From an uncultured Verrucomicrobia subdivision 3 bacterium (GTDB taxonomy: Bacteria > Verrucomicrobiota > Verrucomicrobiia > Limisphaerales > UBA11358): 64,000 nt of DNA. Where the stretch lies: the NCBI GenBank assembly GCA_903895255.1, contig CAITTG010000092.1, positions 64,306-128,305 on the forward strand. The letters are read 5' to 3'. This document shows, one piece after another, positions 11,453 through 52,404 of the stretch. The notes beneath the pieces are model-generated. The model was not told where the DNA came from and did no database searches. It saw only the letters and a program-made list of their open reading frames with translations. Positions within the stretch are counted from its first letter, which is position 1. Every line of letters starts with the position of its first letter. The position numbers and the translations under genes are program-made.

Positions 11453-12262
11453 CTACCATGGACCGGTGCCAACAACCACCGGGGCGTCATAGTAAGAGGC
11501 GTTGTTATCGGCATAATTAACGGCGGTTTTGGCAATAATATTGGCGGCCCCGTTGAATTTGATCCAGTCCACATGACCATCTTCATAGAGAAAATTCCCG
11601 CCCGTGGGAACACCGTTTTTTCCCGCGTGATTGGAGACCGGACCGCTATAACTAAAAGCACCGGTGAAAGAAATATCCCAGGGGTTGGCCGCACCGCTGG
11701 TCTCGATGGCATCGGCCATCACGGCGGCGAGGTGATAGGCTTGGTTTAATTTGGTCCGGGTATACCAGGGGCCATAAGCCGGGACGCTACCGTAAACGGA
11801 ATCGGCCGCCCGGGCGGGCAACCAGTGGTAGCCAATCAGGTTGGTAACACCGGCGGAGGCTTCATAATTCCGCCGCCAGGTGTCGGTGGGACAATACATG
11901 ACCACATTCTGAGCGCGCACCCCGGTGCTGCTGTTGCCGGTGATGTTTTTGTACAAATAGGAAGGGAAAAATCCGGTGTTGAAATTGCCACTGACCCATT
12001 CGGGCCCCTCGTTCTGGGCGGGCAAGGCGATGTTGTCCGGAAAGTGATCGGCAAAATCACCCGCATACATGGCCACCGCGATGCCCCACTGTTTGAGGTT
12101 GCTGGAGCATTGTGCTTGCAGCGCCCGGCTTTTGGCCTTGGCCAGGGCGGGCAGCAGCATGGCCGCCAAAATCGCAATGATGGCAATCACGACCAGCAAT
12201 TCAATCAGGGTGAAGGCGCCGGGCCGCCGGGGGTGAACCGATATTTCCAGGCAATCATTCAT
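11453..12262 (-). CDS. Prepilin-type N-terminal cleavage/methylation domain protein, DUF1559 / H-X9-DG-like pseudopilin family
   Basis: Shows [15 protein letters not shown]|[29 protein letters not shown] and a C-terminal [16 protein letters not shown]. The ORF track starts at 12322, but that ATG lies inside a 10-bp GC hairpin stem. The Met at 12262 gives a typical short prepilin leader. Confidence 0.8.
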
Positions 12263-12299
12263 ATATATTAAAGCAATTTCAGGCCAAACCTGATAAATT

Positions 12300-12358
12300 G
12301 GGGCGGGAACACCCGGTGGCATTCCCGCCCCAAACCCAGTTCAGGGCGAACCGCCCTG
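12300..12358 (-). terminator. Two consecutive GC-rich hairpins downstream of the 12365..15994 gene (possible terminator or attenuator, no clean U-tract)
   Basis: On the minus strand: CAGGGCG-gtt-CGCCCTG (12342..12358), then GGGGCGGGAA-N12-TTCCCGCCCC (12300..12331) followed by AATTTAT. Confidence 0.3.
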
Positions 12359-24238: not shown

Positions 24239-27200
24239 CTAGGGCTGAAACACCCGATAGAAGCGATGGGGGTAATTGGTCGCCTGCCAGTCAAACCAAA
24301 TGAACTGGTTGGTGAGAGCGGTATTGGTGGCGAGCGGCGCCCAGTTGATCAGGTTGGTGGTGGTCTGGAGGACGTAATTGCTGCCAGGGATGCCCGTGAA
24401 ACCCAACTGAAAGACCTGGTTGGAGAAACCTTGGGAGGTGAAGGCCACCGGCTGAACCAAAAACAACGCGCTGGCGGCCACGCTGTTATTGTAACCGGGG
24501 GCAAAAGCACTGGCGGCCAGGGTGGCATTGTTATAGAAAGTGAGACTTCCGGGAAAGCGCAAGGAATTGGTCGTGGGCAGGGAGCCATCCAGGGTGTAAT
24601 AGATCGTTGCGTTGGTGTTGGGATCCACCACACTAACCGGCACCGAGGCTTGGTAGTTGCCGCCATTTGGGTTGATGACTGGCGGAGCCAGTGCGGGAAT
24701 ACCGGGCAGAAGGTTGATCCAGCCTGCGAAAACAGCAACAGCATTGGTATCGATAAGGTTGCGGGCGAGTGGCGGCATTTTATAGGCGGCGTTGGTGGTA
24801 TTGACCCGGGCGTAAATCATGGAACGCCACACGTCTTGCGACCGCACAATGCAGGCATGGTCGTAGCCAAGGGTGACCGCGGCCGGGTAATTGGTGATAT
24901 TCTGACTGGCCAGCTGGGTGTCGTAACGCGCGTCAAAGGAGATACCGGTGCCACCCGGTTGGTGGCACTGCGCGCAATTGGCATCCAGGTACGAGCGACT
25001 GCGGTCCTGGAGCGTGGCGGTGAGGTTGGTCAACGCGGACATTTTCTCCAAATTAGTGATGGTTGCCTCGTCAAATGCCGGGTTTAAGAGACCGAGCCGG
25101 TTGAGCGTCCGCAACTGATTGTCGGTTACCCCGGTCGCCGGATAGGTGTTATTGCCATTCAATTGGCGGGTATTGAGGCCGAGCACGTAATTGGCCACCG
25201 GCGTGTGACAGGTGAGGCAGTCCGCCGGGCTGGGGTAATACCACGTCTGGGTGGTGAGGCCGGTCGCGTTGGTGATGGTAATGGTCTCGTTCAGGCGGTT
25301 GCTCAGCAAGTCCGCATCGCTGTTGTCGGTCCGCCATTTGTAAGTGACGCCGTAAACCGCGCCATTGATGTCGCGCACCAGCAACCGCGTTTCCAAGCGG
25401 CGCACCACGCCGGGGTTGCTGGTGTCGGTGTTCAAAGTAAATGTCTTCACAAATACCGAGCCGGCGGGAAAGGTCCACGACCCGGTGGGGGCAAAGGTAA
25501 TTTGCTGGCCGGGCGTGGGCGGTGCACCGGAGCCGGGCACGGAGAAATAGCGGGCCTTCAACGCGCCATCCGACCATAGGGGCGTGTTGGGCACATAGGG
25601 AATGAGGCCATTGGTGGGGATCATGGCGGGGGTGTTGCTGAACACGCCGGTTTGCGACAGCAAGAGCGGCAGCGGGCCCTGGTAGGTCGTGGGCAGGTTC
25701 AGGAAGGCCGGCAGCGCGGCGTTGGTGGTCAGGCCATAGGGCTGCCCGGTGGCCGGGAGCACCGTGATATTTACGGGCGCGGAAGTGGCACCCAAGCCGC
25801 TGCCATCCACCGCCACAGCAGTCAGCGCATAGTTGCCGGCCGCCAATCCAGTGGCGGTAAGGGTGTACGGCGGACTGGCGGCGGTGCCCAGCAGGGTGCC
25901 ATTCGCATAAAAGCTCACCTGGCTGAGCGGGTTGAAGGGCGCGTCGGCGTCGGCGCCCAGCGTGACACTCGCACTGGCGGTGTACGCGGCAGCGTTGGTC
26001 GGACTGAGTAACACCACCGCCGGCGGCGGGTTGGTGTAGGGATACAATTGTGTCGGCGGAATCACGGCCAGTGGAGTGGATGGACTGCTCCAGGCCAGCG
26101 ATGCCTCCGCGCCACCACCGCCCTGGTAATAATCCATGCGAATATTATAAAGCTGCTGGGCCTTCAGGGTGATCGAACCTTGGTAGGTCGTTGGGGCCTG
26201 GTCCAGCCAGGCATCCACCAGCAACTGGCCGTTCAGCCACAAGCGCACCCCGTCATCGGCCGTGACAGAAAACGTGTAGGTCTCGTTATACTGCGGTTCC
26301 ACCGACCCCAGCCAGCGCGCGGTAAAGACGGTCTGGCCGATGCGCGGGTCCGGACCGGTGGTGTTCCAGTTAAAATTCACCACGGCGTCGGTGCGGGTCA
26401 GAGTGGGTGCGACGTTAAAGGCCAGGTTGGTGAAAGCGGCGCTCGGGGTGTTGGTCCAGTATTCGCCCGTCAAACCGGCCCCGGTGCCAGTAGCGGAGCT
26501 GTTGCTAAAACTCGCGCTGGCCACGGCGCTGGCCACCGTGCCCGGCAGACTGGCGATGACTTGCAACGAAGCGCTGTTGGTGAGCAGCAGCGCCGCAGTG
26601 TAGAGCGTGGAGTTGGTTGTGGGGAGGGTGCCATCCAGAGTATAATAAAGGCCCACTCCTGGCGAAGTGTCAGACAGGGTGACCGTCACCGCATTGGTGA
26701 AAAGTCCGCCGGCCGGAACGATGACCGGCGTGGGCTGGAACACCCCGTTGCCGAAGACGGAGAGCACATATTGCCCCCCCACATAGACCTTGCCATTCGC
26801 AATGGTGGGAGTGGTCATTTTTACCGCGCCACCCGGGTTGTCGCGTGTCGGGTTCAGGCTGCTGTTATAAAGTTCCTGCGCCAAGTTGGTGGCGTTGTAC
26901 GCATGCAAGACCGCAGGTCCGCCACTGGCAAAGGCATCCGGCTGGAGGGACCAGGCGATGGCATTGCCCATGCCGCTGGCGGAGATGGATGGCGTGCCTC
27001 CGGCCCCGCCGTAGCTCGTGGCCGCCGCCGAGACGGGCGTGGTGGCAATAACAGAATTGCTAATCGCAAACGCCTTCAGCACGTCGCCCAGGCCTTGGTA
27101 GTAGATCAGGCCGTTGAAATAAGCCGGACAGCTCCATGTCCCGCCCACCGCGTTGGGAATTTCCTGAACAATTTGCGTGTCCGCAGCGGGGTTGTATTTG

Positions 27201-30200
27201 CCCAGATTGTCGCGGTCCAGCAGGTAGATTTTACCTTCCTTGCCACAGCCCACCAGGAGGTGCGGATGCGCTGTGCCACCGACGGCATCCGGCAGCAAGA
27301 GTGGGCCGCCGGAGCCGAGATCCTCGTCCGCGGCCGACAAGCCGGCCTGGTTGTACGGAGTGAAATAATCCGCCACGCGCAGGCCGTTCGTGGTGGCCAG
27401 TTTCACAAAACTGTCGGAATAATCGCCGCCATTGGTATTGGCGCTAAAACTGCCATTGCCAGTTTCGAAATAAAGGTTGGTCGCGGCATCCACGCACAGG
27501 CCGTCCCCGGCCATCCACAGCGCGCCCTCGGCGGCGTTGGCGCCAAAGGCGGCGACGGTGGCGTTGGGGGTGGTGTTATAAACTAAATTAGTCACCGGCT
27601 GGAGCGTGGTGGCATTGAACCCAATCACCCAGCCGTGATAAGGGTCCGTGTCGGCAAAACTGCCATAGGCCACATACACCAGGCCGCCGGCCAGCGTCAG
27701 CCCGGGGCGCGCATTCTCCTGCCGCGCATTGAACCGCACCACGCCGTTGGAACTGTCCACCCCGCGGCCGGGCACCGACGCGGAGACCACCACCGGACTG
27801 TTGGGCAACTCCATGCCATTGGTCAGGCTGAGGGCGTGGAGGCGGTGATAATAATTCGTCGTGGCCCCCACCTCCCGGCTCAGCACATTGACGTAAAGCA
27901 CCCCCGCCACCGGATCAATGACCGGCGTGCCGGTGATGCCCACCTCGGGAACGATGTCCAAATAATTACCATTCCCATACCGCTGGCCGAACTCGTGATT
28001 GTTGCTCAGCGGCGCGATGCCCGGCGTGACGTGCCAGAGAACCCCGCCGTTCGGGCCGGCATTACTGTCCGCATCCAGCGCATAAATGCTGTCATGCTCC
28101 GTGGCCACGAAGACGACATTATGCACGCCCTGGCCGGGAACGTTGAGGTTCGCCACATAAAGCGGCTGCGCATACACATAGCCATCGAGCGCATAACTGA
28201 ACAACCGCCCGAAGGTGTTGACATTGACGTTCGCCAGGGTGAGCAGAAACTCATTGGTGTTTGCCCCGGCACGAGTGTTGTCATTGTGAAAGGTGGTGAC
28301 ATTGGGCGGCGCGGAAGTTGGCAGGGGCAGCACCGTCAGAAAGGCTGGCTGGCTGGCATTCGTGCCCTCGGCATTGGCGGCAATCACGCTGTACGCGCCC
28401 GCATCGCTGGCGCGGAGGTTTGCCACCGTCAGTGCAGGCGCGGTCTGGCCGGACAAATTGGTGCCGTTATGCTGCCATTGCAAGCTGATCGGTTGGGAAC
28501 CGGCCACGCCCACAGTGAAGGTGGCAAGGCCATTGAGATAGTTGGTTGCCGACGGCGGACTCGGCTGGGTGGCAAACTGGGGTGCGGAGGCGGCATTCAC
28601 GACCAGGGTGAGGGACGGGCTCAGGCTGGCGGCAGTGTTATTACTGACAACCACCGAGTAATAATTGGTGGTATTCGCCGCCAACCCCGGCAAGACCAGG
28701 GAGCTATTGGTTGCGCCTGGAACATTGATGCCATTCACCTGCCATTGGAAAAAAAAAGGCGTGCGGCCGGTGGGGGTCTCACTCAAGGTCACGGCGGTGC
28801 CGCCATAGACCGGGCTGCCGGGCGCGGCCACCGGAGCGTTGGCCACCAGCACGGTGTTGCCAATCCGCCACGCATCCGGGACCACGCCGGCGGTGATTTG
28901 CACCTCGTCGAGGAAACCCCGAAACGTCTGCGGGTTGGCCGCCAGCGGATACGTGTTGCGGCCCAGGAATAGATTCCCGTTGTCCGTGGCGGGCAACGGC
29001 AGAAAACCCGCCGGAAGATTGTTGGTGGCCACGGCCAGCGAGCCATCCGCATTGGCAATCGTGAGCCTTAGTTGCCCATTCGTCCCGGCCAGGGTGTCGC
29101 ACACCGCCAGCAGATAATGCCACTGGCCGTCGGCATAATTCGCTCCGGCCAAATCCACATAGTTCGTGAGACCGAGGCTAGCATTGGCCACTTTGAACCG
29201 GACGCCGCCGGTCGCTGCCTCGTTCATATCAATGCCATAACGAAAAGTCTGGCCGGTGTCCGTGCCCTGGGCCGCCAGCTCCATCGTCCCCGCGCCGCTC
29301 TGATTACCGTCCGTTGCGAAAAACAACTCAATGGAAAACGGCCCGGTGAAATCCATTTCGTCACCGTACTGGTCCTGCGGAAAGAACAAGGCGCCATCCA
29401 CGTTCGTGATCGATTCCGCATCGTAGGAAAAACTCCCCGGGCCATGCGCGTTAACAAACATCGAGCTGGGGGCGGTGTTAGTGGCCAGGGTCACCGGGTT
29501 GCCCGGGAGGCCATTGAAGGTGATGAGGTCATCGATCGCCGCTGGCAGGATACCGGTGGTGTAAATGCCCTGCCCCACCGTCGTGTCGCTATCCACCACG
29601 CCAGTGAAGGCTCCCACACCAGCGCTGTTGGGCGCGGTGATCTGCGCCTCCATCCGCCAGCAGGCGACGTTGTAGGGCGGGATGACCGTCAACGGCGCGA
29701 CCGAACTGGTCACCGCCCCCCCGCTATTTGCAACCATCACGGAATAGTTCGCACTGGCACCGGAGACGGGATACAAGTTCAAGTTGGGCAGCGTCGCTCC
29801 GACAACGGGGACGCCATTGCTGAGCCATTGATAGGTGAGCGCCCCCAGACCCGTGGCGGTGACATTAAACCCGGCCGGACCTCCCAGATCCGTGGTGACC
29901 GAGGCCGGTTGGCCAGTAATGGCTGGCGGCGGCACATTCGCTGCGGTCGCCCAAGTTGTGCCCAGATGGTAAAGACTCAGCGACACCAGTTGCACCCCGC
30001 TGCCGATGGCGGTCATGCCGAGCGGCTGAGGACCGGCCACCGGGGTCACGCTCATGGGCATGTACAAGAAACCGCCGTTGCCGAAAATCTCAACCGACCC
30101 GCGGTCCACTAGAAAGCGCAGATGCACGACGCCGTTGCTGGGACTCAGCGCATTGGTCAAGCCCGCGCAAGCCACCGTCCGGCTGGCGGCGTTGTAAACC

Positions 30201-32113
30201 ACCGGGGTGCCGGCCAGATTGAATACCACCTGATTGGTGGCCCCCGGCTGGAATTGGGCGTCCAAATCAAAGGCCTCCCCGCTCATTCCCGCCAGGGCGT
30301 TGGCCCCGTTCACCAGCGACTGCGCGGGCCAGGTGTTGGTGGTGAGCCGGAGCTGCGCGATTTCCGCCACCGGATTGGCATCCAGCCACGGACCGGAAGG
30401 CGCGCTTTGCAAGGTCAGCACCACCGGGAAATTCATGATGGAATTGAACGGCACGCCCGTGAAATTTACCGTTCCCTGGGAAATGAGAATGCGCCGGCCA
30501 TCCGCCGCCGGGATATTGTTAAAGGTTTGCGCCGCCGCCATGCTGTTCCCCTGCCGGATCACATTCGGCCCATTGAGCGCGGTAAAGGTGTTGCCGTCAA
30601 ACTGGCCGGTGTAATAATTGCCCGCCCCCGCCCAGAAAACCCATGACAGGTTGTTGGGGTTGCCGTCCAGCGGCAATTGAAACAGCTCCGGCACCTCGAT
30701 CACGCCCGGAAAGGTGAACGTGGAGGTTTGCGTCCAGTGTTTCAGGTCGGTCGAGGAGAAGAAGCCGAAGTCGTGGTTGTTCAGCCAGAGCACGAGCACC
30801 CATTTGTTGCCGGGCGCGTACCAGATGACCTTCGGGTCACGGTTGTCGCCGCCCACGAGATTGGGGATGACGGGATTGTTCGTGTACTTGGTCCAGGTTA
30901 CCCCCTGATCGAGGCTGTAAGCCAGGCACTGGGTGAAGAGCTGGCCGGCGGACATCCGGGGATTGTTGCTGTGACCGCCGGCCGCGGTGTAAAAAGCCAC
31001 CAGGGCGTTCGTGCCAAAACCCGCGCTATTGTTCTCATCCACCACCGCCGAGCCGGACCACATCGCCCCCAGCCAGTCCGGATACAGCGCCTCCGGCAGT
31101 TCCTGCCACTGCACCAGGTTCGTGCTCACCGCGCTGCCCCAGTGCATGTTGTCCCACTCGGTGCCATAGGGATTGTGCTGGTAATACAAATGATACTGTC
31201 CGTCGTAAAAAACCATCCCGTTCGGATCGTTGAGCCAGCCTCGGCGCGCGGTATAGTGATACACCGGCCGCGTCGTTTCCTGATAAATCGGGGTGGTGGT
31301 CAGGATGTTGGTGGCCTGCACCAAGGCCGTGAGCTGGCTGGCATTGGCGGCCGCGGAATCCACCCGCACGAGCAGCTCCCCTTGAAACGCCGTTAAATCG
31401 AGAAACGCATAATAATCCGGGGTGCCATTGGTCACCAAGGCGAGGTTAAACTCGTGAATCACCAGCCCGTTTTGCAGCAGCTCCACCAGATGGCTGGGAC
31501 CGGCATAACTGACCGGCAAATTTAAATAGTGGTTCGTGGCCACCAGCCGGTTGGGCAACGAAGTGGCCGTCTCGGTGATCTGGTCCACATTGATGTGGCC
31601 CCAACCATTGGTGCAGGCGTCGACGATTTGGAGCTGCGCGGTTTGATTGAGATAACCGCTGACATTCCACTGCAACCAGTCCAGTGCCTCGCGGTCACCC
31701 ATGCCCACCGCCGAGAAAACGACTTTCCCGCCCACCAGCAGATTGACACAGGTTTGGGTCCGATGGTTGCCCGCGCCAATGAGAAATTTAAGATAAGTGC
31801 GGGTGATGGTGAAGGGAGGCGAGGTCAAAGTCCCGGTGCTGGCGTCCCCATTATAAAAGGTGTTTACCAGCCCTTTGCCCAGATAACCGGACACGGCCTG
31901 CTGGCCGGCGAGGGTGCCCTGCGCCGGCCCGGGCCCCATGGCCGAGCCCGTGACCGTCCAGCTTCCGCCGGGCAACCACGCGTAATTGGTCGCCTCAAAA
32001 TCCGCCAGCACAATGTCCTGCGCCCGCAAAGCACCCGCGAGGGCCACCAGTCCCAGCCAGACGAGGAGACCTTTTACCAACCCGCCCGCCCGCCCGGTTC
32101 GCTTGGCAATCAT
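24239..32113 (-). CDS. Giant multidomain secreted GH32 (beta-fructofuranosidase/levanase-type). Domain order: N-terminal beta-sandwich, GH32, Ig-like, LamG, Ig-like x2, PQQ/BamB-like beta-propeller, CHB_HEX_C-like, PA14, Ig-like, diheme CxxCH module, CHB_HEX_C-like, FYR-tail domain.
   Basis: GH32 catalytic motifs WLNDPNG, RDPKV and IEVPELF. PA14: GLTGEYWTN...FTARWLGSVEPQYNETYTFSVTADDGVRLWLNG. Propeller: TFHNDNTRAGANTNE...LDGYVYAQPLYV...VFVATEHDSIYALDA. CLTCH at nt 25205..25219 and CAQCH at nt 24962..24976. The ORF track start at 32116 is TTG, immediately followed by the ATG at 32113. Confidence 0.85.
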   Translation of the reverse strand: MIAKRTGRAGGLVKGLLVWLGLVALAGALRAQDIVLADFEATNYAWLPGGSWTVTGSAMGPGPAQGTLAGQQAVSGYLGKGLVNTFYNGDASTGTLTSPPFTITRTYLKFLIGAGNHRTQTCVNLLVGGKVVFSAVGMGDREALDWLQWNVSGYLNQTAQLQIVDACTNGWGHINVDQITETATSLPNRLVATNHYLNLPVSYAGPSHLVELLQNGLVIHEFNLALVTNGTPDYYAFLDLTAFQGELLVRVDSAAANASQLTALVQATNILTTTPIYQETTRPVYHYTARRGWLNDPNGMVFYDGQYHLYYQHNPYGTEWDNMHWGSAVSTNLVQWQELPEALYPDWLGAMWSGSAVVDENNSAGFGTNALVAFYTAAGGHSNNPRMSAGQLFTQCLAYSLDQGVTWTKYTNNPVIPNLVGGDNRDPKVIWYAPGNKWVLVLWLNNHDFGFFSSTDLKHWTQTSTFTFPGVIEVPELFQLPLDGNPNNLSWVFWAGAGNYYTGQFDGNTFTALNGPNVIRQGNSMAAAQTFNNIPAADGRRILISQGTVNFTGVPFNSIMNFPVVLTLQSAPSGPWLDANPVAEIAQLRLTTNTWPAQSLVNGANALAGMSGEAFDLDAQFQPGATNQVVFNLAGTPVVYNAASRTVACAGLTNALSPSNGVVHLRFLVDRGSVEIFGNGGFLYMPMSVTPVAGPQPLGMTAIGSGVQLVSLSLYHLGTTWATAANVPPPAITGQPASVTTDLGGPAGFNVTATGLGALTYQWLSNGVPVVGATLPNLNLYPVSGASANYSVMVANSGGAVTSSVAPLTVIPPYNVACWRMEAQITAPNSAGVGAFTGVVDSDTTVGQGIYTTGILPAAIDDLITFNGLPGNPVTLATNTAPSSMFVNAHGPGSFSYDAESITNVDGALFFPQDQYGDEMDFTGPFSIELFFATDGNQSGAGTMELAAQGTDTGQTFRYGIDMNEAATGGVRFKVANASLGLTNYVDLAGANYADGQWHYLLAVCDTLAGTNGQLRLTIANADGSLAVATNNLPAGFLPLPATDNGNLFLGRNTYPLAANPQTFRGFLDEVQITAGVVPDAWRIGNTVLVANAPVAAPGSPVYGGTAVTLSETPTGRTPFFFQWQVNGINVPGATNSSLVLPGLAANTTNYYSVVVSNNTAASLSPSLTLVVNAASAPQFATQPSPPSATNYLNGLATFTVGVAGSQPISLQWQHNGTNLSGQTAPALTVANLRASDAGAYSVIAANAEGTNASQPAFLTVLPLPTSAPPNVTTFHNDNTRAGANTNEFLLTLANVNVNTFGRLFSYALDGYVYAQPLYVANLNVPGQGVHNVVFVATEHDSIYALDADSNAGPNGGVLWHVTPGIAPLSNNHEFGQRYGNGNYLDIVPEVGITGTPVIDPVAGVLYVNVLSREVGATTNYYHRLHALSLTNGMELPNSPVVVSASVPGRGVDSSNGVVRFNARQENARPGLTLAGGLVYVAYGSFADTDPYHGWVIGFNATTLQPVTNLVYNTTPNATVAAFGANAAEGALWMAGDGLCVDAATNLYFETGNGSFSANTNGGDYSDSFVKLATTNGLRVADYFTPYNQAGLSAADEDLGSGGPLLLPDAVGGTAHPHLLVGCGKEGKIYLLDRDNLGKYNPAADTQIVQEIPNAVGGTWSCPAYFNGLIYYQGLGDVLKAFAISNSVIATTPVSAAATSYGGAGGTPSISASGMGNAIAWSLQPDAFASGGPAVLHAYNATNLAQELYNSSLNPTRDNPGGAVKMTTPTIANGKVYVGGQYVLSVFGNGVFQPTPVIVPAGGLFTNAVTVTLSDTSPGVGLYYTLDGTLPTTNSTLYTAALLLTNSASLQVIASLPGTVASAVASASFSNSSATGTGAGLTGEYWTNTPSAAFTNLAFNVAPTLTRTDAVVNFNWNTTGPDPRIGQTVFTARWLGSVEPQYNETYTFSVTADDGVRLWLNGQLLVDAWLDQAPTTYQGSITLKAQQLYNIRMDYYQGGGGAEASLAWSSPSTPLAVIPPTQLYPYTNPPPAVVLLSPTNAAAYTASASVTLGADADAPFNPLSQVSFYANGTLLGTAASPPYTLTATGLAAGNYALTAVAVDGSGLGATSAPVNITVLPATGQPYGLTTNAALPAFLNLPTTYQGPLPLLLSQTGVFSNTPAMIPTNGLIPYVPNTPLWSDGALKARYFSVPGSGAPPTPGQQITFAPTGSWTFPAGSVFVKTFTLNTDTSNPGVVRRLETRLLVRDINGAVYGVTYKWRTDNSDADLLSNRLNETITITNATGLTTQTWYYPSPADCLTCHTPVANYVLGLNTRQLNGNNTYPATGVTDNQLRTLNRLGLLNPAFDEATITNLEKMSALTNLTATLQDRSRSYLDANCAQCHQPGGTGISFDARYDTQLASQNITNYPAAVTLGYDHACIVRSQDVWRSMIYARVNTTNAAYKMPPLARNLIDTNAVAVFAGWINLLPGIPALAPPVINPNGGNYQASVPVSVVDPNTNATIYYTLDGSLPTTNSLRFPGSLTFYNNATLAASAFAPGYNNSVAASALFLVQPVAFTSQGFSNQVFQLGFTGIPGSNYVLQTTTNLINWAPLATNTALTNQFIWFDWQATNYPHRFYRVFQP

Positions 32114-32122
32114 CAAAACAAT

Positions 32123-34186
32123 TTACCGCCACGCTGATTTCAGCGTCCATACTTCCGCCGAATGGATTTTCGTATTCTCCGCCGGCCCGAAGAATTCCAC
32201 CCCGCGGCTACCCGCCGAGGGATAAACCAAATCGGTGATGACCCGTTCGCCGTTGTTTACAAAGACTTCCACCGAACAGGCATCCACAAAGATGTGCAAC
32301 TGGACGGGGCCACTGGCGCGGGGCAGCGGGGCGTCCTGCACTCCGGGAAATTGGGGATTGAAACCCACGTTGCCGGATTGCGAACGGTCCACAAATACCC
32401 GTCCCGCCGAGCGATCCACGCCAATCGCCGTCGCCTCATTTGCGCCTTTCAACACTTTCACCCCGGACACTCCAGTGGTGGCCGGCGCGAGTTCCACCAG
32501 CAATTCCAATTGCTTACCCTGAATCGCCTGGTCCACCAGCCACGCATTCGCCTGCGCCAGATCCCCGCCGGGAAAGACCAGATGCCGGTCGCGCAACGAC
32601 TCCATTTCCCGCGTGGGTTTCTGCACCAGCCGGAGGCCCTCGGTGGTGCGGCGCAAGCCCACCTCGCGCGGTATGGACATCGCACTGCGCCACGGCGAGG
32701 TGGGCACGTCCCCGCCATACTGCCAGTTGCTCATCCAGCCGAGCCAAAGGCGGCGGCCGTCTGACTTTGGCACATCGCTCCACGACACGGCGGCGTAATA
32801 ATCCTTGCCGTAATCAAACCAAAGGGCCGCCTCGGAGGCGGAATGCGCCGGGGCGTCCGCCAGCATGATCTGGTCCACATTGATGTGGCCCCAGCCGCCG
32901 GTCGCATGGTCCACAATTTGCAGCACGGCACTTTGCCCCATGAAATCACGCACGTCCCAGGCGTGCCAGGTCAACTGCTCGGCATCCTGGCCGGAGGCCG
33001 TCCGCACCACCTTGCCGTCCACCAGCAGGTTCATGCAGGTTTCCTTTTGCGAGCCGCCGCCGATGAGGAAATTCACATACGCATGCGTGAGTGCAAACGC
33101 CGGCGAAGTCAGTGTGCCTTGGGTGCCATCGCCATGGTAATAGCTGTTCACCAACCCATGGCCAACATAGCCCGTCACCGGATTTTGATCGCCCAGCACG
33201 CCCTGGGCCGGGCCGGGACCGAAAGCCTCGCCAGTGGTTTTCCAATCACCATAGTCCTTGCCCTCGAAATCCGCGATCACCGTGCCGTCCGGCACCACCG
33301 CCGGCGTTGGCTGGAGCGTCTCATCCGGGTCCGCCGTGAAATTCGTGCCGTCAAACTGGCCGATGAAATATTGCCCGCCTGAACCGCCCGCCACACTGCC
33401 CGGGTTCATGTTCACCGCGAGCACCCAGTGTTTTTCGTTGGTGCCCTGCACCGGCAGTTCAAACAAGTCGGGGCATTCCCACACACCGCTCGTGGCGCCA
33501 GCCGGGCCAAATTCACTGAGCAGCGTCCACTCCTTGAGATTGGGCGAACTGTAAAACAACACTTTGTGATCCGCCGCCAGTGAAACCGTCATAATCCAGC
33601 GGTGGGTGGCCTCATACCACTGCACTTTTGGATCACGAAAATCACGTGAGTTGAGGTTGATGACCGGGTTGCCCGCATATTTCGTCCAGGTGCGCCCCTT
33701 GTCATTGCTGTAGGCGATGTTCTGAAATTGCAGGTTATCCGCCGGCCGGTAGCCCGCATAAATGGCGATCATTGGCGGCTGGCCATTAATGCCAAATCCG
33801 CTCGTGTTATGCCAGTCCACCACCGCGCTGCCGGAAAAAATCATCACGCCGTCCGCCTCAGGCAGCGCCAGCGGCAGATGCTGCCAGTGAACCAGGTCCG
33901 GACTCACCGCGTGCCCCCAGCTCATGTGGCCCCACGTGTTGCCAAAGGGATTGTACTGGTAAAACAGATGATACTCCCCGGCGTAATACACCAGTCCATT
34001 GGGGTCGTTCATCCAGTTCTTTTCCGGCGTGAAATGGAACTGGGGCCGGAAAGGCTCCGTGTAATAATCGGCGGGCCGGGCCGGGGCATCCGCCCGGGTG
34101 GTGAGCAGCGACACCCCCAGACCCAATCCCAGAAAAATTCCCTGGCTGAGGATTCGGCCCGAACGGCCGGCAAGCATGAGTTTCAT
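32123..34186 (-). CDS. GH32 exo-fructosidase (levanase/inulinase-type) with a beta-sandwich domain nested inside the propeller
   Basis: Motifs FRPQFHFTPEKNWMNDPNGLVYY, FRDPKV and WECPDLFEL. Signal peptide from MKLMLAGRSGRILSQGIFLGLGLGVSLL (ATG at 34186). The ORF track extension to 34408 overlaps the kinase gene. Confidence 0.9.
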   Translation of the reverse strand: MKLMLAGRSGRILSQGIFLGLGLGVSLLTTRADAPARPADYYTEPFRPQFHFTPEKNWMNDPNGLVYYAGEYHLFYQYNPFGNTWGHMSWGHAVSPDLVHWQHLPLALPEADGVMIFSGSAVVDWHNTSGFGINGQPPMIAIYAGYRPADNLQFQNIAYSNDKGRTWTKYAGNPVINLNSRDFRDPKVQWYEATHRWIMTVSLAADHKVLFYSSPNLKEWTLLSEFGPAGATSGVWECPDLFELPVQGTNEKHWVLAVNMNPGSVAGGSGGQYFIGQFDGTNFTADPDETLQPTPAVVPDGTVIADFEGKDYGDWKTTGEAFGPGPAQGVLGDQNPVTGYVGHGLVNSYYHGDGTQGTLTSPAFALTHAYVNFLIGGGSQKETCMNLLVDGKVVRTASGQDAEQLTWHAWDVRDFMGQSAVLQIVDHATGGWGHINVDQIMLADAPAHSASEAALWFDYGKDYYAAVSWSDVPKSDGRRLWLGWMSNWQYGGDVPTSPWRSAMSIPREVGLRRTTEGLRLVQKPTREMESLRDRHLVFPGGDLAQANAWLVDQAIQGKQLELLVELAPATTGVSGVKVLKGANEATAIGVDRSAGRVFVDRSQSGNVGFNPQFPGVQDAPLPRASGPVQLHIFVDACSVEVFVNNGERVITDLVYPSAGSRGVEFFGPAENTKIHSAEVWTLKSAWR

Positions 34187-34193
34187 CGTTTGA

Positions 34194-35138
34194 TTAAATG
34201 GCGGCGTTGGCGGGCACGACCTTGGGGGCCAGTTGCTGGTGGGGAGCCGGATGACTGGCCAGCCGTTCCGCAAATTGCCGCGGCAACGGCGGCGTGGCAC
34301 CGGCGCTGGCGCAGACAAAGCGGGCCACTTCATCCGCGAAGCAATTGATCTCGTCCAGCGGCATTCTGCGCAGCAACCCCAGTACCAGTGCCGCGGTAAA
34401 CGAATCACCCGCTCCGACGGTGTCCACTACTTTGATCGGCACCGAGGGACAATCCGACCACTGCCCGTTTTGATAGAGCAAACTGCCCGCCGGACCCCGC
34501 GTGAGGGCCACCACATCCAGTTCAAACCGACCGGCCAGCGCCTGGATCATTTCGCGGGTGCTGCCCGTCAGGCCGAATTGCTCCGCCAGCACCGGCAGTT
34601 CCCCGTCATTCAATTTGAGCACATTGGCCAGTCGCAGGGATTGCTCGATGATTTCCGGCGTGAAATACTTCTGGCGCAAGTTAATATCGAAAATCCGCAG
34701 AGTGCCCACGGGTGCGGTGGCCACCAGTTGTTGAATCGACGCCCGGGCGAGCTCGCTGCGCTGGGCCAGGCTGCCGAAGCAAACGGCATCCGCCTCGTTA
34801 ATGGCGGTTTTGGCGGCAGACGTCACCTCCAACCGGTCCCAGGCGGCGTTTTCATGAATGATATACTGGGGTATCCCCGCTTCGGAAAGGGTGACCGTGA
34901 CCATGCCCGTCGCGGCCGTCGGGTCCACCTGGACCGTGCCGCACCCAATCCCCTGCCCCTCCAGACGTTTAAAAATATCATCCCCAAACCCATCGTTGCC
35001 CACGCGTGTCACGACGCAGGCCTGAGCCCCCAGCGCATGGGCGTGGCAGGCAAAATTCGCCGGCGCCCCGCCCAGTTTCATTCCCGAGGGCAGCAAGTCC
35101 CACAGCACCTCGCCAATCCCGACAATTTTAAATTTCAT
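34194..35138 (-). CDS. PfkB-family carbohydrate kinase (fructokinase-type)
   Basis: Shows MKFKIVGIGEVLWDLLPSGMKLGGAPANFACHA..., C-terminal DTVGAGDSFTAAL and the anion-hole GAGD. The ATG at 35138 is preferred. The ORF track extension to 35453 overlaps the transporter gene. Confidence 0.85.
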   Translation of the reverse strand: MKFKIVGIGEVLWDLLPSGMKLGGAPANFACHAHALGAQACVVTRVGNDGFGDDIFKRLEGQGIGCGTVQVDPTAATGMVTVTLSEAGIPQYIIHENAAWDRLEVTSAAKTAINEADAVCFGSLAQRSELARASIQQLVATAPVGTLRIFDINLRQKYFTPEIIEQSLRLANVLKLNDGELPVLAEQFGLTGSTREMIQALAGRFELDVVALTRGPAGSLLYQNGQWSDCPSVPIKVVDTVGAGDSFTAALVLGLLRRMPLDEINCFADEVARFVCASAGATPPLPRQFAERLASHPAPHQQLAPKVVPANAAI

Positions 35139-35146
35139 GCGGAGCG

Positions 35147-36472
35147 TCAAACAATTCCCAGCTTCTTTTGCATTTGTTCCAGCGGCACGCCCTTGGTTTC
35201 CGGCACCAGCGTCTTCACCCAGATGAGTTGCAGCACCATCATGAACGCGAAAAACGCGAACACGCCACCCGGCGGAAACACCGTGACCATTTTCGGGAAG
35301 AAGGTCGTGAGCAACGCGGCAAAAATCCAGTGCGTGAAACTCCCCAGCGATTGTCCCTCGGCCCGGTGCCGGTTCGGGAAAATTTCCGAGATAAACACCC
35401 AGATCACCGCCCCCTGACCGATGGCGTGCGCCGCGATGAAGGCAAAAATACACACCGGCACAATGGCGTAATGCGCCGTGAAAAACGCCCAGGACACCAT
35501 TCCCAGCGAAAGGATGTAACCGAAAGAGCCAATGAACAGCAGCGTGCGGCGGCCCAGGCGGTCAATCAACCACAGGCCCACAAATGTGAAAATCAAATTG
35601 GTCACGCCAATCCCCACGGATTGCAGCAGCGCCGCCTTCGCGCCCAGCCCGGTCAATTCGAAAATGCGCGGGGCAAAATACAGAATGGCATTGATGCCGG
35701 ACAACTGGTTGAAGAAGGCGATCAAAAACGCCAGCATGATGGGCAGCCGCAGCCGCCAGGTCCAAAACTTGTCCGTCGCGTGGCCCTCGTTGGACGCCGT
35801 GGTAATCCGGTCCGCTTCCGCGTCCAGCTCGGCCGCCGTGGCCTCCGGCTGAATCAACCGCAACACCTGCAAACCCGCCGCGCGGTCATTCTTCCGGCCC
35901 AGCAGCCAGCGCGGACTCTCCGGCAGCCCCAGGCAGCACACCACATACACCAGGGAGGGAAACGCCGCCACGCCCAGCATCCAGCGCCACGCATTTTCAC
36001 CGGTGCCCGCCAGCAACGCGTTGGACAAAAAGGCCACCAGGATGCCGAACACAATGTTAAACTGGAACATCCCCGCCAGCCGTCCACGATGCGCGGGCGG
36101 TGCGATTTCTGAAATATACAGCGGCGCCACCACCGTGGAGATACCGATGCCCAGGCCGCCCAGGACGCGCGCCATGATGAAGGAATAAACATCCCCCGCC
36201 AGCGCCGACCAGATCGCTCCCACCAGATACAGGCCGCCAATGCACAGCAGCGTCGCTTTGCGGCCGAACCTGTCCGTCGGCCAGCTTCCGCACAAGGAGC
36301 CGATGACCGTGCCGTAAAGTGCCGAGGCCATGGCGATGCCATGCACCCCGGCGCTCAACCCCCACAAAGTTTGGATTTTTTGCTCGGCCCCGGAAATGAC
36401 CACAGTGTCAAAGCCAAACAGGAAGCCCGCCAGCGCGGAGGTGACGGCCCAGAAAAAGATGCGCGGATTCAT
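35147..36472 (-). CDS. MFS sugar porter family transporter
   Basis: Motifs seen: GFLFGFDTVVISGA, PESPRWL, RLGRRTLL and VPETKG, with 12 predicted hydrophobic spans by eye. The start is either ATG 36472 (MNPRIFFWAV, preferred) or ATG 36595 (the ORF track start, which adds 41 non-hydrophobic residues). Confidence 0.85.
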   Translation of the reverse strand: MNPRIFFWAVTSALAGFLFGFDTVVISGAEQKIQTLWGLSAGVHGIAMASALYGTVIGSLCGSWPTDRFGRKATLLCIGGLYLVGAIWSALAGDVYSFIMARVLGGLGIGISTVVAPLYISEIAPPAHRGRLAGMFQFNIVFGILVAFLSNALLAGTGENAWRWMLGVAAFPSLVYVVCCLGLPESPRWLLGRKNDRAAGLQVLRLIQPEATAAELDAEADRITTASNEGHATDKFWTWRLRLPIMLAFLIAFFNQLSGINAILYFAPRIFELTGLGAKAALLQSVGIGVTNLIFTFVGLWLIDRLGRRTLLFIGSFGYILSLGMVSWAFFTAHYAIVPVCIFAFIAAHAIGQGAVIWVFISEIFPNRHRAEGQSLGSFTHWIFAALLTTFFPKMVTVFPPGGVFAFFAFMMVLQLIWVKTLVPETKGVPLEQMQKKLGIV

Positions 36473-36636
36473 GCGCTGCAGGTTGGCCGAACCGGCGGAA
36501 CTTTTCAACCCGCCATGTGGCCGGCCCGAAGGGGCCGGGCGCGAGGTTGCGTGGCGGTCGTCCGCCTGAAAAGTAGGGGGAGGAATGGAGGCCATATATA
36601 AAAGGATATTCCGGGCGAGGTTGTTGCTAAATCAAG

Positions 36637-36676: not shown

Positions 36677-37504
<828 letters not shown>

Positions 37505-37613: not shown

Positions 37614-39884
37614 TCAGTGCTTGATCTTGTAGAACTGCGCGGCGCCACTCTTGGCCACCGTCGCCTGGAAGTTACCACCGCCCAGCGAGGTGACGCTGGC
37701 GGCCAGGGTGGTGTAGGTGCCATTCACGGTGGGCGAGCCCACCAGGGTGTAGGACGATGCCAAGGCCGCCGGACTGCCGGTGAATTGAATCGTCACCGTG
37801 CTTCCGCTCAGGCTGATGCCAGTGATACTCGGCGGACCCGCCACGTAGCCCAACTGGCCGGTGGCCGGGGTAATCAAGCCGGAGGAAACCTGCACTTCAT
37901 CAATTTCACCAATGAACGTGCGCGGATCAGTGTTGCCGCCATCGACCAACGGGTAGCGGAAACGACCAACAAACAAGTTGCCCGTGACTTGGTTCGCCAG
38001 CGGACTATAACCGGCCGGCAGCGCGGCCGTGACATTCGTGCCACTGCCATCCGCGTTAGCCACCGACAAGCTGATGGTGTTGGCCACGGAATCGTATTTG
38101 GCCTGCAGATAATGCCAGGCACCGTCCGCATAATTAGCGTTGTTCAAGACGACGGACTGGATACCGGGGTTGGTGTCCTCCCAAGACGGGCCGGTCGGGG
38201 CGGTGCCCAAATTATTGACCTTGAAGCTGATGGCACCCGGACCCGCCTGGTTCAAATTAACCCCGTAGCGGAAGGTGTTGCCACCGTCCGAGCCCTGGCA
38301 GAGTAATTCCATCGGGCCAGTTCCGCTCTGGTCGCCATAGCTCCGGAAAAACAGCTCCAGCGTGAAGTCGGTTTGGAAGTCAAAGACGTCCGGTCCGAGC
38401 GGGTAAAACACCACGCCATTCACATTTTGAATGAACGAGGCGTCAAAGGCATTCGTGCTGCCATTGTTGCCATTGATAAACATCGTCGCCGGCGGAACGG
38501 CATTAGTCAGCCCGATACCGCCGTTGGCACCAATGCCACTCGGGTTGGGCGCGTCGTTAAAGGTAATCAAATCATAAATCCCACCGGGCAGAACATCATC
38601 CACGGTGGCCTGCGGAAACGTCACCGCCTCGGTGAAGTTAAACGACCAACGGGTCTGGGGAATGGCCGGCACCACGGAAACCACCATGGGCGCGCTGATG
38701 GCGGGCGGGCCACCGCACGGCGTGGTCGCCGTCACTTGGTAGGTGCCCGATTCAGCGGGCGTCGCCGGGTAGAGATTGAGCGCCAGATTGGTCGCGCCCG
38801 GAATGTTAACTCCGTTCAATTGCCACTGGTATTGCAGTGGGCCGCCCAGCACTTGGACGGGCCAGGTGGCTGGCGAGACATTCAAAACTGAACCCTGGGC
38901 CACTGAGGTGGTGGAGGCCGTGTTGTTGAACACCGGTGCATTGCAGGCCGCGGCATTCGCCATCAATTTGCTGTTGGGCAGCGAGGCGTTGGAATAACGG
39001 AGTTGGTTAATCTCACCGTCGAATTGCTCGTTTTGGTTTTCATCGCAACCGAGAAACACCGGGCCCTGACTACCGGAACCGCCCGGATTCAAGGGCACCG
39101 TGATATAGGTGGAAGTCTCGGCGCTGGTGCCGTCCTGATTCACCACCAGCAAATCCATGGTCTCGGTCGCGGTGTTAAACCGCATCGCCGCATAATGCCA
39201 CTGGCCGTCGTCCAGCCGGTGACCGTGGTTTTGCGCCGCCGTGATGCGGCAGTCGATGCCGAACACCGCCACGTTCCAGCTCCAGAAGCGGATGCTGCCA
39301 ATATTATTAGTGTTGCCCGCGTTGTCGTTCAGGGACAAAAACGCATAGGCCGACTGGTGGTGATCAAAAATGAGGAACTGGGTCTGGGTGCCCGTTGACG
39401 GATCATTCGCCGTGTCCGACTTGAAATAGATTTCCCAGGTAAAATCCGGGCCGTTAAAATTGTTGCCATAAGTGGTGTTGTCACAGGTCAGGCTCCCGCC
39501 CGCGCCGGAAAACAAGTCCGCGCCGCAATCCCAGGACCCCGTCCCGGCCGTGAAATAATTGTCACCGTTGAACATGCCCGCCGGGGGCGCGTCCGCCGTG
39601 AAGGTTGGACCGGCGGAAACCGGCCCCTGAAACCACAGGTCCTGCACCGAAACCGGCACCCCGCTCACGGTTCCAGGAATCGTTCCCTGGCCAGCGTTCG
39701 TGGCCAAATCCAATATGCCGTTGCCGCTCGGGCTCAAGGTCACACTGGCAGCCGCGCCCAGCTTCCAGTAGGCGACGGTCGTGGCGTTGGTATCTGACTC
39801 CTGCGCGAAGGCCACCCCCGAGGCTCCCACGCAGAGCGCGGCGGCCAGGGCCGCCGTCTGCTTGATTCTGACGTTTGCTTTCAT
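37614..39884 (-). CDS. Secreted LamG - Ig-like - LamG protein with a C-terminal FYR-tail-type domain
   Basis: Signal peptide MKANVRIKQTAALAAALCVGASGVAFAQ (ATG 39884; the ORF track start at 39977 is GTG). The second LamG (FTLELFFRSYGDQSGTGPMELLCQG...TFRYGVNLNQ...YADGAWHYLQAKYD...EIDEVQVS) is homologous to the LamG of the GH32 giant. C-terminus: ...SSYTLVGSPTVNGTYTTLA...AAQFYKIKH. Confidence 0.8.
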   Translation of the reverse strand: MKANVRIKQTAALAAALCVGASGVAFAQESDTNATTVAYWKLGAAASVTLSPSGNGILDLATNAGQGTIPGTVSGVPVSVQDLWFQGPVSAGPTFTADAPPAGMFNGDNYFTAGTGSWDCGADLFSGAGGSLTCDNTTYGNNFNGPDFTWEIYFKSDTANDPSTGTQTQFLIFDHHQSAYAFLSLNDNAGNTNNIGSIRFWSWNVAVFGIDCRITAAQNHGHRLDDGQWHYAAMRFNTATETMDLLVVNQDGTSAETSTYITVPLNPGGSGSQGPVFLGCDENQNEQFDGEINQLRYSNASLPNSKLMANAAACNAPVFNNTASTTSVAQGSVLNVSPATWPVQVLGGPLQYQWQLNGVNIPGATNLALNLYPATPAESGTYQVTATTPCGGPPAISAPMVVSVVPAIPQTRWSFNFTEAVTFPQATVDDVLPGGIYDLITFNDAPNPSGIGANGGIGLTNAVPPATMFINGNNGSTNAFDASFIQNVNGVVFYPLGPDVFDFQTDFTLELFFRSYGDQSGTGPMELLCQGSDGGNTFRYGVNLNQAGPGAISFKVNNLGTAPTGPSWEDTNPGIQSVVLNNANYADGAWHYLQAKYDSVANTISLSVANADGSGTNVTAALPAGYSPLANQVTGNLFVGRFRYPLVDGGNTDPRTFIGEIDEVQVSSGLITPATGQLGYVAGPPSITGISLSGSTVTIQFTGSPAALASSYTLVGSPTVNGTYTTLAASVTSLGGGNFQATVAKSGAAQFYKIKH

Positions 39885-40079
39885 GTTTATGGTTTGCTGT
39901 TTGGTTGTGTTGCGGTCAATTTCCCCGCAACTGGCCGGTCCTGAACCACGGGTTGCCCGGCCGAAACACTCGTTCACGCCGGTCCCGCAGAGCTGCCATC
40001 GGGCTCAAAATCGCGCCGATGAAAACCGGTTGGTGCAGTCGCTGGGTACATCATTAGTTATAGCCAATTGTTAAAAACC

Positions 40080-52184: not shown

Positions 52185-52404
52185 AAAAAGATTCGCAATA
52201 AAATGGGCTCCAAACATACATGTGCTATTCGACGGCAAAACATGACAAAATATCCGGCGGCGACCGCACGATGACTCTGCATTTGGAAAACGGAAAAATC
52301 TTAGACCAATTCGCGCGGTTTGTCGCGCTACCGAAATGGGTGACCGTGCGGGAGCACTTTTGAACGTGCACCGGCTGGGAGAATTAAACTCACCCGCCAA
52401 GGGT

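Follow-up and report, generated by a model that had tools for sequence, protein, structure and literature searches.

The fungal enzyme CcPDH is a quinohemoprotein classified by CAZy among the auxiliary activities (PMC4332668), and Cbp2D and CjX183 of C. japonicus, as well as TERTU_3803 and TERTU_2913 of T. turnerae, are extracellular redox proteins implicated in polysaccharide breakdown (PMC8981238, PMC10916295). Some bacterial 6-bladed enzymes of the pyrroloquinoline quinone (PQQ) type also carry heme-binding domains (bioRxiv 10.64898/2026.07.10.737718). The TIGR03806 family of diheme c-type cytochromes has neither a solved structure nor an assigned function; our literature searches for TIGR03806, HNE_0200, and SO_2930 yielded one table entry, in which Shewanella SO_2930 is grouped with c-type cytochromes of the outer membrane or extracellular space (PMC4837345). 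Here we describe a module of this type in a giant secreted protein with a glycoside hydrolase family 32 (GH32) domain, encoded in a stretch of 64,000 nucleotides (hereafter, the window) of contig CAITTG010000092.1 from an uncultured Verrucomicrobia subdivision 3 bacterium (assembly GCA_903895255.1). The module is probably the electron-accepting cytochrome of a quinohemoprotein-type dehydrogenase cassette that has been fused to a fructanase in one lineage.

The diheme module and its family

The giant gene encodes a product of 2,624 amino acids counted from ATG 32113 (Table 1). An initial annotation, prepared from the nucleotide sequence alone, had noted the motifs CLTCH and CAQCH together with KMPP in this secreted GH32 protein, and all three were found in the translation. 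The 2,625 residues include 14 Cys and 32 His, a composition from which 0.00084 CxxCH motifs are expected analytically per protein, and the probability of two or more is ~4e-7; the two motifs, which lie 81 residues apart, are therefore not a product of chance. No CxxCH motif was present in any of the 20 other long open reading frames (ORFs) of the window. Pfam also returned the PA14 domain, the two chitobiase-C-like domains (CHB_HEX_C), and the immunoglobulin (Ig)-like domains (Ig_3 and Big_7) listed in the initial annotation. The LamG domain listed there was only weakly matched by Pfam (E = 0.009), yet the region is 43% identical to the neighboring LamG gene in the window (37614-39977).

A search against NCBIfam confirmed the suspected resemblance to HNE_0200/SO_2930-type proteins. 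The NCBIfam profile TIGR03806 (SO2930 family diheme c-type cytochrome, chp_HNE_0200) matched amino acids 2150-2468 over profile positions 3-313 of 314, that is, at full length, with an E value of 2.4e-59 and a score of 201.1 bits, although this score is under the curated cut-off. Relatives of the Planctomycetes-Verrucomicrobia-Chlamydiae (PVC) type that we tested, whether stand-alone, fused to a GSDH domain, or part of the cassette described below, all scored 198-243 bits, and the clade of the module is therefore best placed as a sister of curated TIGR03806. Modules of this type are very abundant, with 6,832 clusters of 50%-identity representatives passing a threshold of E <= 1e-3 and 2,207 passing E <= 1e-30, and at least 290 copies belonging to this clade are present in GTDB species representatives. 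Our scan of those representatives yielded 290 module relatives, of which the best 80 loci were analyzed, and 81 ORFs were compared.

Conservation was examined in a set of 215 sequences. Of these, 81 are the genomic ORFs, and the other 134 are representatives that cover the module at full length and share 43-75% identity with the query. Residues C176, C179, and H180 of the first motif, C257, C260, and H261 of the second, and M323 and P324 were invariant in 215/215 sequences, and in 134/134 when the representatives were considered alone, with the "xx" positions inside both CxxCH motifs varying freely. Retention of the Cys and His residues in homologs, on which the initial annotation had made its cytochrome assignment depend along with a profile match, was thus complete, as was that of the Met. 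By homology, we regard the module as a TIGR03806-type diheme cytochrome c in which heme would be attached at both motifs.

The AlphaFold2 model of the module was built from 41 sequences, with a pLDDT (predicted local distance difference test) score of 88 and a predicted template modeling (pTM) score of 0.88. It comprises a beta-rich NH2-terminal half (residues ~35-170) and a helical COOH-terminal half that resembles class I cytochromes. Helix 173-179 is predicted to end at CLTCH and helix 245-257 at CAQCH, with helix 333-345 following M323-P324. The last 111 residues of the module were aligned end to end by hhalign with Pseudomonas cytochrome c551, with a P value of 0.003; this alignment pairs CxxCH with CxxCH and MPP with MPP. 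Precomputed matches to PF13442 are present in some homologs of the module. A sequence search of PDB with the module, both as a single sequence and as a profile, yielded no relative and matched only the flanking Big_7 and CHB_HEX_C domains. Given that Foldseek gave no match, the class I assignment of the COOH-terminal half derives from secondary structure together with the weak hhalign alignment. We read heme 2 (CAQCH, with Met323) as a probable class-I-like His/Met site suited to electron transfer. Heme 1 (CLTCH) would sit at the junction with the beta-rich subdomain, which is lined with invariant polar residues, and pack against it.

The propeller cassette and PQQ

The 80 loci are nearly all from metagenome-assembled genomes (MAGs) of Verrucomicrobiia/Limisphaerales/Pedosphaera, often with several loci per genome. 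The module is located ~250 residues ahead of the stop codon in every locus, in ORFs of 1,200-2,600 codons. BLAST searches with the domains of the giant protein revealed a cassette with the order propeller, CHB_HEX_C, PA14, Big_7, diheme module, CHB_HEX_C, and FYR tail, which spans amino acids ~1,270 to 2,624 of the giant protein, or ~1,350 residues. Propeller, PA14 domain, and module occur together in 71/81 ORFs, with most of the rest being truncated or frameshifted, and the cassette is present in 71 of the 80 loci. In ~8-12 loci, as well as in P0124, P0129, and P0130 among the representatives, nothing intervenes between signal peptide and propeller, so that the cassette is an autonomous secreted protein of ~1,350-1,400 amino acids there. 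An abundant and uncharacterized secreted cassette of Verrucomicrobia has thus been identified. The FYR tail, for which there is no Pfam model, is 42% identical to the COOH-terminus of an unrelated PATR-repeat giant protein of 3,303 amino acids encoded in the window (42693-52604, tail 42696-42872, minus strand), and it may be shared among giant surface proteins of Verrucomicrobia as a domain for sorting or anchoring. Loci L018, L021, L028, L033, L040, L048, L050, and L052 carry ~400 extra residues, without a Pfam match, between Big_7 and the module (for example, L021:8768-10003).

The PQQ/BamB-like propeller proposed in the initial annotation was borne out at the level of fold and not by a Pfam or PDB sequence match. 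The AlphaFold2 model has eight blades (pLDDT 83, pTM 0.88), and Foldseek matched it to the quinohemoprotein alcohol dehydrogenase (ADH) 1yiq (E = 6.2e-13, TMq 0.57) and to 1kb0, with further matches to PedH (TMq 0.60), MDH/XoxF, sorbose dehydrogenase, and BamB. The motif D332-x-D334-L, K361, and other polar residues (segment numbering) are invariant in the propeller family. Local alignment pairs the segment around K361, GKEGKIYLLDRDN, with the stretch that contains Lys493 in E. coli PQQ-glucose dehydrogenase (Gcd), AKTGNIFVLDRRN, and its score of 43, compared with 30.6 +/- 4.5 for shuffled sequences (31/2000 as high), provides modest support. The same two lysines are also paired in a family-profile match (E = 0.013). 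The D466-M-D468-L motif of Gcd lies ~27 residues upstream of Lys493, and the D-x-D-L motif of the propeller is equally placed. Lys493 is essential in Gcd, and the alignment is a weak hint that the active site of the propeller may resemble that of Gcd.

Domain pairing points in the same direction. Among the best 150 of the 50%-identity module representatives, a GSDH domain (PF07995, PQQ glucose/sorbosone dehydrogenase) is present in 87, always on the NH2-terminal side of the module and often with Ig or CHB_HEX_C linkers between the two, and the 8-bladed propeller is present in 24. Clustering of the ORFs that flank the 80 cassette loci revealed PqqE, PqqC, and PqqB within 7 kb in seven loci (L055:3325-5990, L076, L014, L017, L018, L023, and L028), with four or more different arrangements; the cassette genes of L055 and L076 have pqqB-C-E directly upstream on the same strand. 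PqqE (503 bits, cut-off 381) and PqqC (331 bits, cut-off 240) both exceed their equivalog cut-offs. Genes for an M42 peptidase and for a prepilin-like protein also recur around the pqqB-C-(D)-E operons. In addition, 27/80 loci contain a YVTN propeller gene that resembles TIGR03866 (264 bits, cut-off 287), the profile named "PQQ-dependent catabolism-associated beta-propeller protein," and this gene is frequently divergent from the cassette gene at a distance of 72-213 bp. A search of the literature on Pedosphaera and PQQ returned nothing relevant. The domain pairing, the gene neighbors, and the active-site hint together point to PQQ chemistry.

Given that the module belongs to the propeller cassette, the natural redox partner of its hemes is expected to be the propeller rather than the glycosidase. 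After Sec-dependent export, heme would be attached covalently at both CxxCH motifs. The propeller would then oxidize a carbohydrate or alcohol at a PQQ site, with the PA14 domain helping to position the substrate, which is probably a carbohydrate as the presence of PA14 suggests; the hemes would take up electrons from the PQQ site and deliver them to the respiratory chain or to an external acceptor. A second, shorter gene that encodes a diheme module and a CHB_HEX_C domain adjoins the cassette gene in at least 22 loci (for example, L055:11404-13329 and L020:2273-4275), and its product could be a soluble cytochrome that serves as an external electron partner, or a paralog. The initial annotation had offered both a redox role and a non-redox use of the CxxCH fold, and the redox role fits these observations much better.

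Several findings weigh against assigning the module to a PQQ dehydrogenase in this way. For the module itself, the TIGR03806 score is below the curated cut-off (201.1 versus 313.3 bits), Pfam matches around CAQCH remain under threshold (PF13442 Cytochrome_CBB3, 22.6 versus 27; PF00034 Cytochrom_C, 21.0 versus 21.3), and a Foldseek search with the whole 346-residue model found no solved cytochrome (best E = 0.027, TM <= 0.15). If heme 1 takes its sixth ligand from the His found at column 101 of GSDH-type modules (see below), it is coordinated differently in cassette-type modules. For the propeller, no match was obtained in Pfam (E <= 1), in NCBIfam, or by PDB sequence search, even with a profile; the cofactor-less BamB fits its fold about equally well as do PQQ enzymes; and in an hhalign comparison of the family with E. 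coli Gcd, the alignment was limited to a 16-residue blade motif. The propeller family is also widespread without the heme module, either by itself or joined to Calx-beta, LamG, or ricin domains, and PQQ binding was tested but not observed for the similar propeller of TERTU_3803 (PMC10916295). Contact between propeller and module, which are separated by ~330 residues (CHB, PA14, and Big_7), is assumed. Finally, neither pqq nor YVTN nor cytochrome-maturation genes are present in the 64-kb window, and the neighboring genes for a PfkB kinase and a major facilitator superfamily (MFS) transporter suggest import of fructose rather than its extracellular oxidation.

Alternatively, the diheme module might itself be the catalyst, with heme 2 feeding heme 1 at a peroxidase-, oxidase-, or MauG-like site and the heme 1 pocket acting on H2O2 or a carbohydrate-derived substrate. 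The beta-rich half contains many invariant polar residues (D59, K63, R65, K100, E118, T119, R120, Y135, and W137), and no invariant His or Met is on offer as a sixth ligand of heme 1 other than M323, which belongs to heme 2. Column 101 of the module (amino acid ~2225 of the giant protein, in VFVKTF, within nucleotides ~25451-25474) is Thr in this protein and switches between architectures, from His in 75/79 GSDH-type modules to Thr or Asn in 72/81 cassette ORFs. The fold of the module has no solved relative according to Foldseek, and the module also occurs alone, in secreted proteins of 360-460 amino acids, as well as in the shorter genes beside the cassette. Such a catalytic role is nevertheless unlikely in our estimation, given that the strict placement of the module on the COOH-terminal side of a PQQ-type dehydrogenase in 87/150 representatives is the pattern of an electron acceptor. 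Catalysis by the module and relay of electrons from the propeller are, moreover, not mutually exclusive.

The GH32 head and its locus

The initial annotation had placed the heme module within a GH32 protein. This view did not hold, in that the module proved to be a domain of the independent and widespread cassette and the GH32 head normally stands alone. Judging from these comparisons, two proteins that exist separately elsewhere have been fused in the giant gene in a lineage-specific manner, and its head (amino acids 1 to ~1,100) would be a complete secreted fructanase with an NH2-terminal domain, GH32, Ig, and LamG. Both the NH2- and COOH-terminal GH32 domains were matched by Pfam (PF00251, E = 5.6e-58; PF08244, E = 3.5e-6). 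The motifs WLNDPNG (nucleophile), RDPKV, and EVP (acid/base) are intact and typical and match the motifs found in relatives, six of which likewise have EVP, a variant of ECP.

To sample related heads, metagenomes were scanned with amino acids 30-690, which yielded 78 loci. The nearest relatives (60-70% identity) are proteins of ~1,160 amino acids that consist of the NH2-terminal domain, GH32, Ig, and LamG and that end after LamG, and more remote relatives have ~730 amino acids; the beta-rich NH2-terminal domain is present in all stand-alone GH32 relatives. Neither propeller nor module sequence was detected in the ORF or within 10 kb of the stand-alone relatives at any of the 78 loci, which therefore provide no independent genomic support for a coupling between GH32 and the cassette. 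One locus among the 80, L002, is from a Verrucomicrobia subdivision 3 MAG that is syntenic with the window over 19.5 kb (82% nucleotide identity) and contains the same intact ORF of 2,627 codons, with amino acid identities of 73-96% per domain (propeller, 93%; module, 92%; GH32, 90%). The fusion of a glycoside hydrolase with a c-type heme module, described initially as unusual, was found only in the window and in L002 among the 80 module genome loci and the 78 GH32-head metagenome loci, and we found no literature that describes such a redox unit in fusion with a glycoside hydrolase. A comparative search for other GH32 proteins or carbohydrate-active enzymes (CAZymes) with the same module, as suggested in the initial annotation, thus yielded the L002 fusion, but 20 sampled cassette heads (PATR, LamG, Ig, and Fn3) included no other glycoside hydrolase.

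These results bear on what the fusion might achieve. An oxidative activity auxiliary to GH32 is possible. A fuller scheme, in which sugar released by GH32 would be oxidized on the spot by the PQQ dehydrogenase, perhaps of the lanthanide type given the invariant D-x-D, and electrons would be transferred through the structurally new diheme cytochrome to the respiratory chain or an extracellular acceptor, appears doubtful to us. Coupling between GH32 and the cassette is supported by nothing beyond the fusion itself, with co-localization on a shared scaffold being a serious alternative. Extended to the cassette as a whole, this alternative would make it mainly a scaffold for cell-surface display or anchoring onto which GH32 was grafted, with the hemes being either unlinked to fructan degradation or structural. 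The diverse and mostly adhesin-like heads, the FYR tail common to the unrelated PATR giant, the lack of cassette parts near stand-alone GH32 relatives, and a locus that appears to import and phosphorylate fructose are all compatible with such a scaffold. The invariance of the heme ligands in 215/215 sequences and of polar residues in the propeller argues against it, however, as does the finding that propeller and module are at least as conserved as GH32 between the window and L002. The links to pqq and YVTN genes likewise argue for a cofactor-dependent enzyme and not an inert stalk. We therefore judge the scaffold explanation of the whole cassette to be improbable, although it may hold for the narrower question of GH32 coupling. 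Merging of two adjacent genes by an assembly or sequencing error, which might be suspected given that both halves are separate proteins elsewhere and that many database relatives are visibly broken by frameshifts, is ruled out for practical purposes by the same uninterrupted ORF, with all domains, in the independent L002 MAG, and the junction is bridged by Ig domains and shows no remnant of a second signal peptide. The electron-accepting role of the module within a dehydrogenase cassette thus remains our preferred interpretation.

Features of the giant gene and the adjacent fructan-utilization genes are compiled in Table 1. The fructan locus also contains a GntR/LacI-type regulator. The GH32 domain of the giant protein is 46% identical to the adjacent GH32 paralog (32123-34408). 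In this paralog, amino acids ~377-514 (32867-33280, minus strand), located between the NH2- and COOH-terminal parts of GH32, are 56% identical to the NH2-terminal domain of the giant protein. The same domain is therefore placed differently in adjacent paralogs, preceding GH32 in one and lying inside it in the other. The PfkB and MFS ORFs (34194-35453 and 35147-36595, both minus strand) overlap by ~300 nucleotides, and the Pfam match of PfkB starts at amino acid 126; the true start of PfkB is probably an internal codon.

Table 1 Coordinates of the giant gene, its domains and motifs, and the adjacent fructan-utilization genes in the window
Feature	Position	Strand	Remarks
Whole ORF	24239..32116	-	Uninterrupted; start TTG 32116 or ATG 32113; stop codon 24239-24241
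Putative Sec-type signal peptide MIAKRTGRAGGLVKGLLVWLGLVALAGALRAQ	32018..32113	-	Inferred by reading of the translation
NH2-terminal beta-rich domain accompanying GH32	31274..32017	-	Weak DUF4980 match, E 0.0019
GH32 catalytic unit	30071..31258	-	Pfam; GH32N aa 286-545, GH32C aa 586-681
Ig-like/LamG-like/Ig-pair linker	28328..29941	-	aa ~725-1262; Ig_3, I-set, weak Laminin_G_2; contains the point, past LamG, at which stand-alone fructanases end
8-bladed PQQ-alcohol-dehydrogenase/BamB-like beta-propeller (predicted)	26732..28306	-	aa 1271-1795; AlphaFold2 and Foldseek; first cassette domain
CHB_HEX_C domain 1	26519..26716	-	Pfam
PA14 domain, carbohydrate-binding type	26075..26476	-	Pfam E 4.6e-25
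Big_7 Ig-like domain	25817..26023	-	Pfam E 6.2e-11
Diheme c-type cytochrome module, TIGR03806-like	24707..25744	-	NCBIfam match at nt 24710-25666
CLTCH, putative heme 1 attachment motif	25205..25219	-	Module C176, C179, H180; invariant
CAQCH, putative heme 2 attachment motif	24962..24976	-	Module C257, C260, H261; invariant
KMPP	24770..24781	-	Met-Pro-Pro at 24770..24778; M323 candidate distal ligand of heme 2
CHB_HEX_C domain 2	24482..24670	-	Pfam E 1.1e-14
FYR tail domain	24242..24466	-	COOH-terminal ~75 aa; conserved in 77/81 cassette ORFs
Upstream fructan-utilization genes: 761-aa GH32 paralog, PfkB sugar kinase, MFS sugar transporter	32123..36595	-	Pfam

Other genes of the window were also recorded. 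An ORF of 1,455 amino acids (3588-7955, plus strand) contains a Y-family polymerase part (IMS, amino acids 17-160; IMS_C, 248-347) together with a DnaE2-like polymerase III alpha part (PHP, DNA_pol3_alpha, finger, and HHH_6), and it resembles a fusion of an ImuB/DinB-like protein with DnaE2, which are normally encoded by separate genes of a mutagenesis cassette. Genes with a prepilin-type NH2-terminal methylation motif (DUF1559-like) are located at 11453-12322 and 36677-37504 (both minus strand), and such genes were also present in 24 cassette loci; they recur beside giant-protein and CAZyme genes and may belong to a secretion or pseudopilus system for these large proteins. Further CAZymes are encoded at 782-23896 and 52405-55820, including GH95, two GH78 rhamnosidases (one of 1,425 amino acids), GH43, and a GH29 fucosidase. 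The window also encodes a PEP-CTERM LamG protein that adjoins a HisKA_3/LuxR two-component pair, and three giant proteins with PATR/autotransporter repeats.

Given the GSDH pairing, the PQQ-ADH-like propeller, and the adjacency of pqqBCDE, it is a testable proposal that TIGR03806 supplies the cytochrome domain of PQQ-type dehydrogenases that act on carbohydrates in Verrucomicrobia of soil and peat. The GH32 fusion is a candidate "Rosetta stone" for combined hydrolytic and oxidative processing of carbohydrates in bacteria, analogous to the fungal cellobiose and pyranose dehydrogenases (CDH and PDH). Should hydrolysis and oxidation prove to be coupled, this would be the first physical fusion of a glycoside hydrolase with a redox chain resembling an auxiliary activity, and the large TIGR03806 family would gain a function, with its cytochromes serving PQQ sugar dehydrogenases of both the 6-bladed and the 8-bladed type. 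Should the fusion be incidental, as it may be, it would still represent a clear example of domain accretion onto a common surface-protein cassette. The system is of interest for studies of CAZyme auxiliary activities and of direct-electron-transfer biosensors.

Comparison with known systems

The module resembles TIGR03806 proteins in the ~314-residue domain matched end to end, the two CxxCH motifs in register, the invariant Met-Pro, and secretion. It differs in being part of a multidomain protein of 2,624 amino acids rather than a protein of ~350-400 amino acids. The TIGRFAM description pairs members of the TIGR03806 family with a parallel beta-helix partner, TIGR03805. TIGR03805 was absent from the giant protein in the NCBIfam search; the flanking genes, assigned by Pfam only, encode GH78 and GH32 proteins. 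The GSDH-TIGR03806 fusions (for example, P0163, P0166, and P0149) carry the same diheme module (43-57% identity) in the order dehydrogenase-type propeller, Ig/CHB_HEX_C linkers, and module. These proteins, which are also uncharacterized, differ in having a 6-bladed propeller, His at column 101, and no glycoside hydrolase head.

Type II quinohemoprotein ADHs (ADH IIG, 1yiq; QH-ADH, 1kb0) likewise combine an 8-bladed propeller and a c-type cytochrome in one secreted polypeptide, and the relatives of the cassette are linked to pqq genes and to the TIGR03866-like YVTN gene. The cassette, however, has no detectable sequence similarity to PQQ-ADH families, and its cytochrome is a diheme domain of ~320 residues with a different fold, whereas that of the ADHs is a monoheme class I domain of ~100 residues. 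Three beta-sandwich domains including PA14 are also interposed between propeller and cytochrome in the cassette, unlike the arrangement in the ADHs.

The Cbp2D and TERTU proteins are similarly secreted and multidomain, uniting cytochrome domains of the c type with carbohydrate-binding modules and a propeller that has been annotated as PQQ-like. X183 and X132, the cytochrome domains of these proteins, each have a single CxxCH motif and belong to other families, and carbohydrate-binding modules take the place of a glycoside hydrolase. Identity of our module with CAZy X132 was considered and ruled out on the basis of that single motif. Fungal CcPDH (AA12, AA8, and CBM1) and cellobiose dehydrogenase (AA3_1 and AA8) also join a sugar dehydrogenase and a cytochrome with a carbohydrate-binding domain in one secreted chain. 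These eukaryotic enzymes contain heme b in an AA8 fold and a catalytic domain that is either a 6-bladed PQQ or a flavin domain; they are not fused to a hydrolase and show no homology to the module. The general type of protein is thus known, and what is new here is a quinohemoprotein-like dehydrogenase that carries an uncharacterized diheme cytochrome and that, in one lineage, is fused to GH32.

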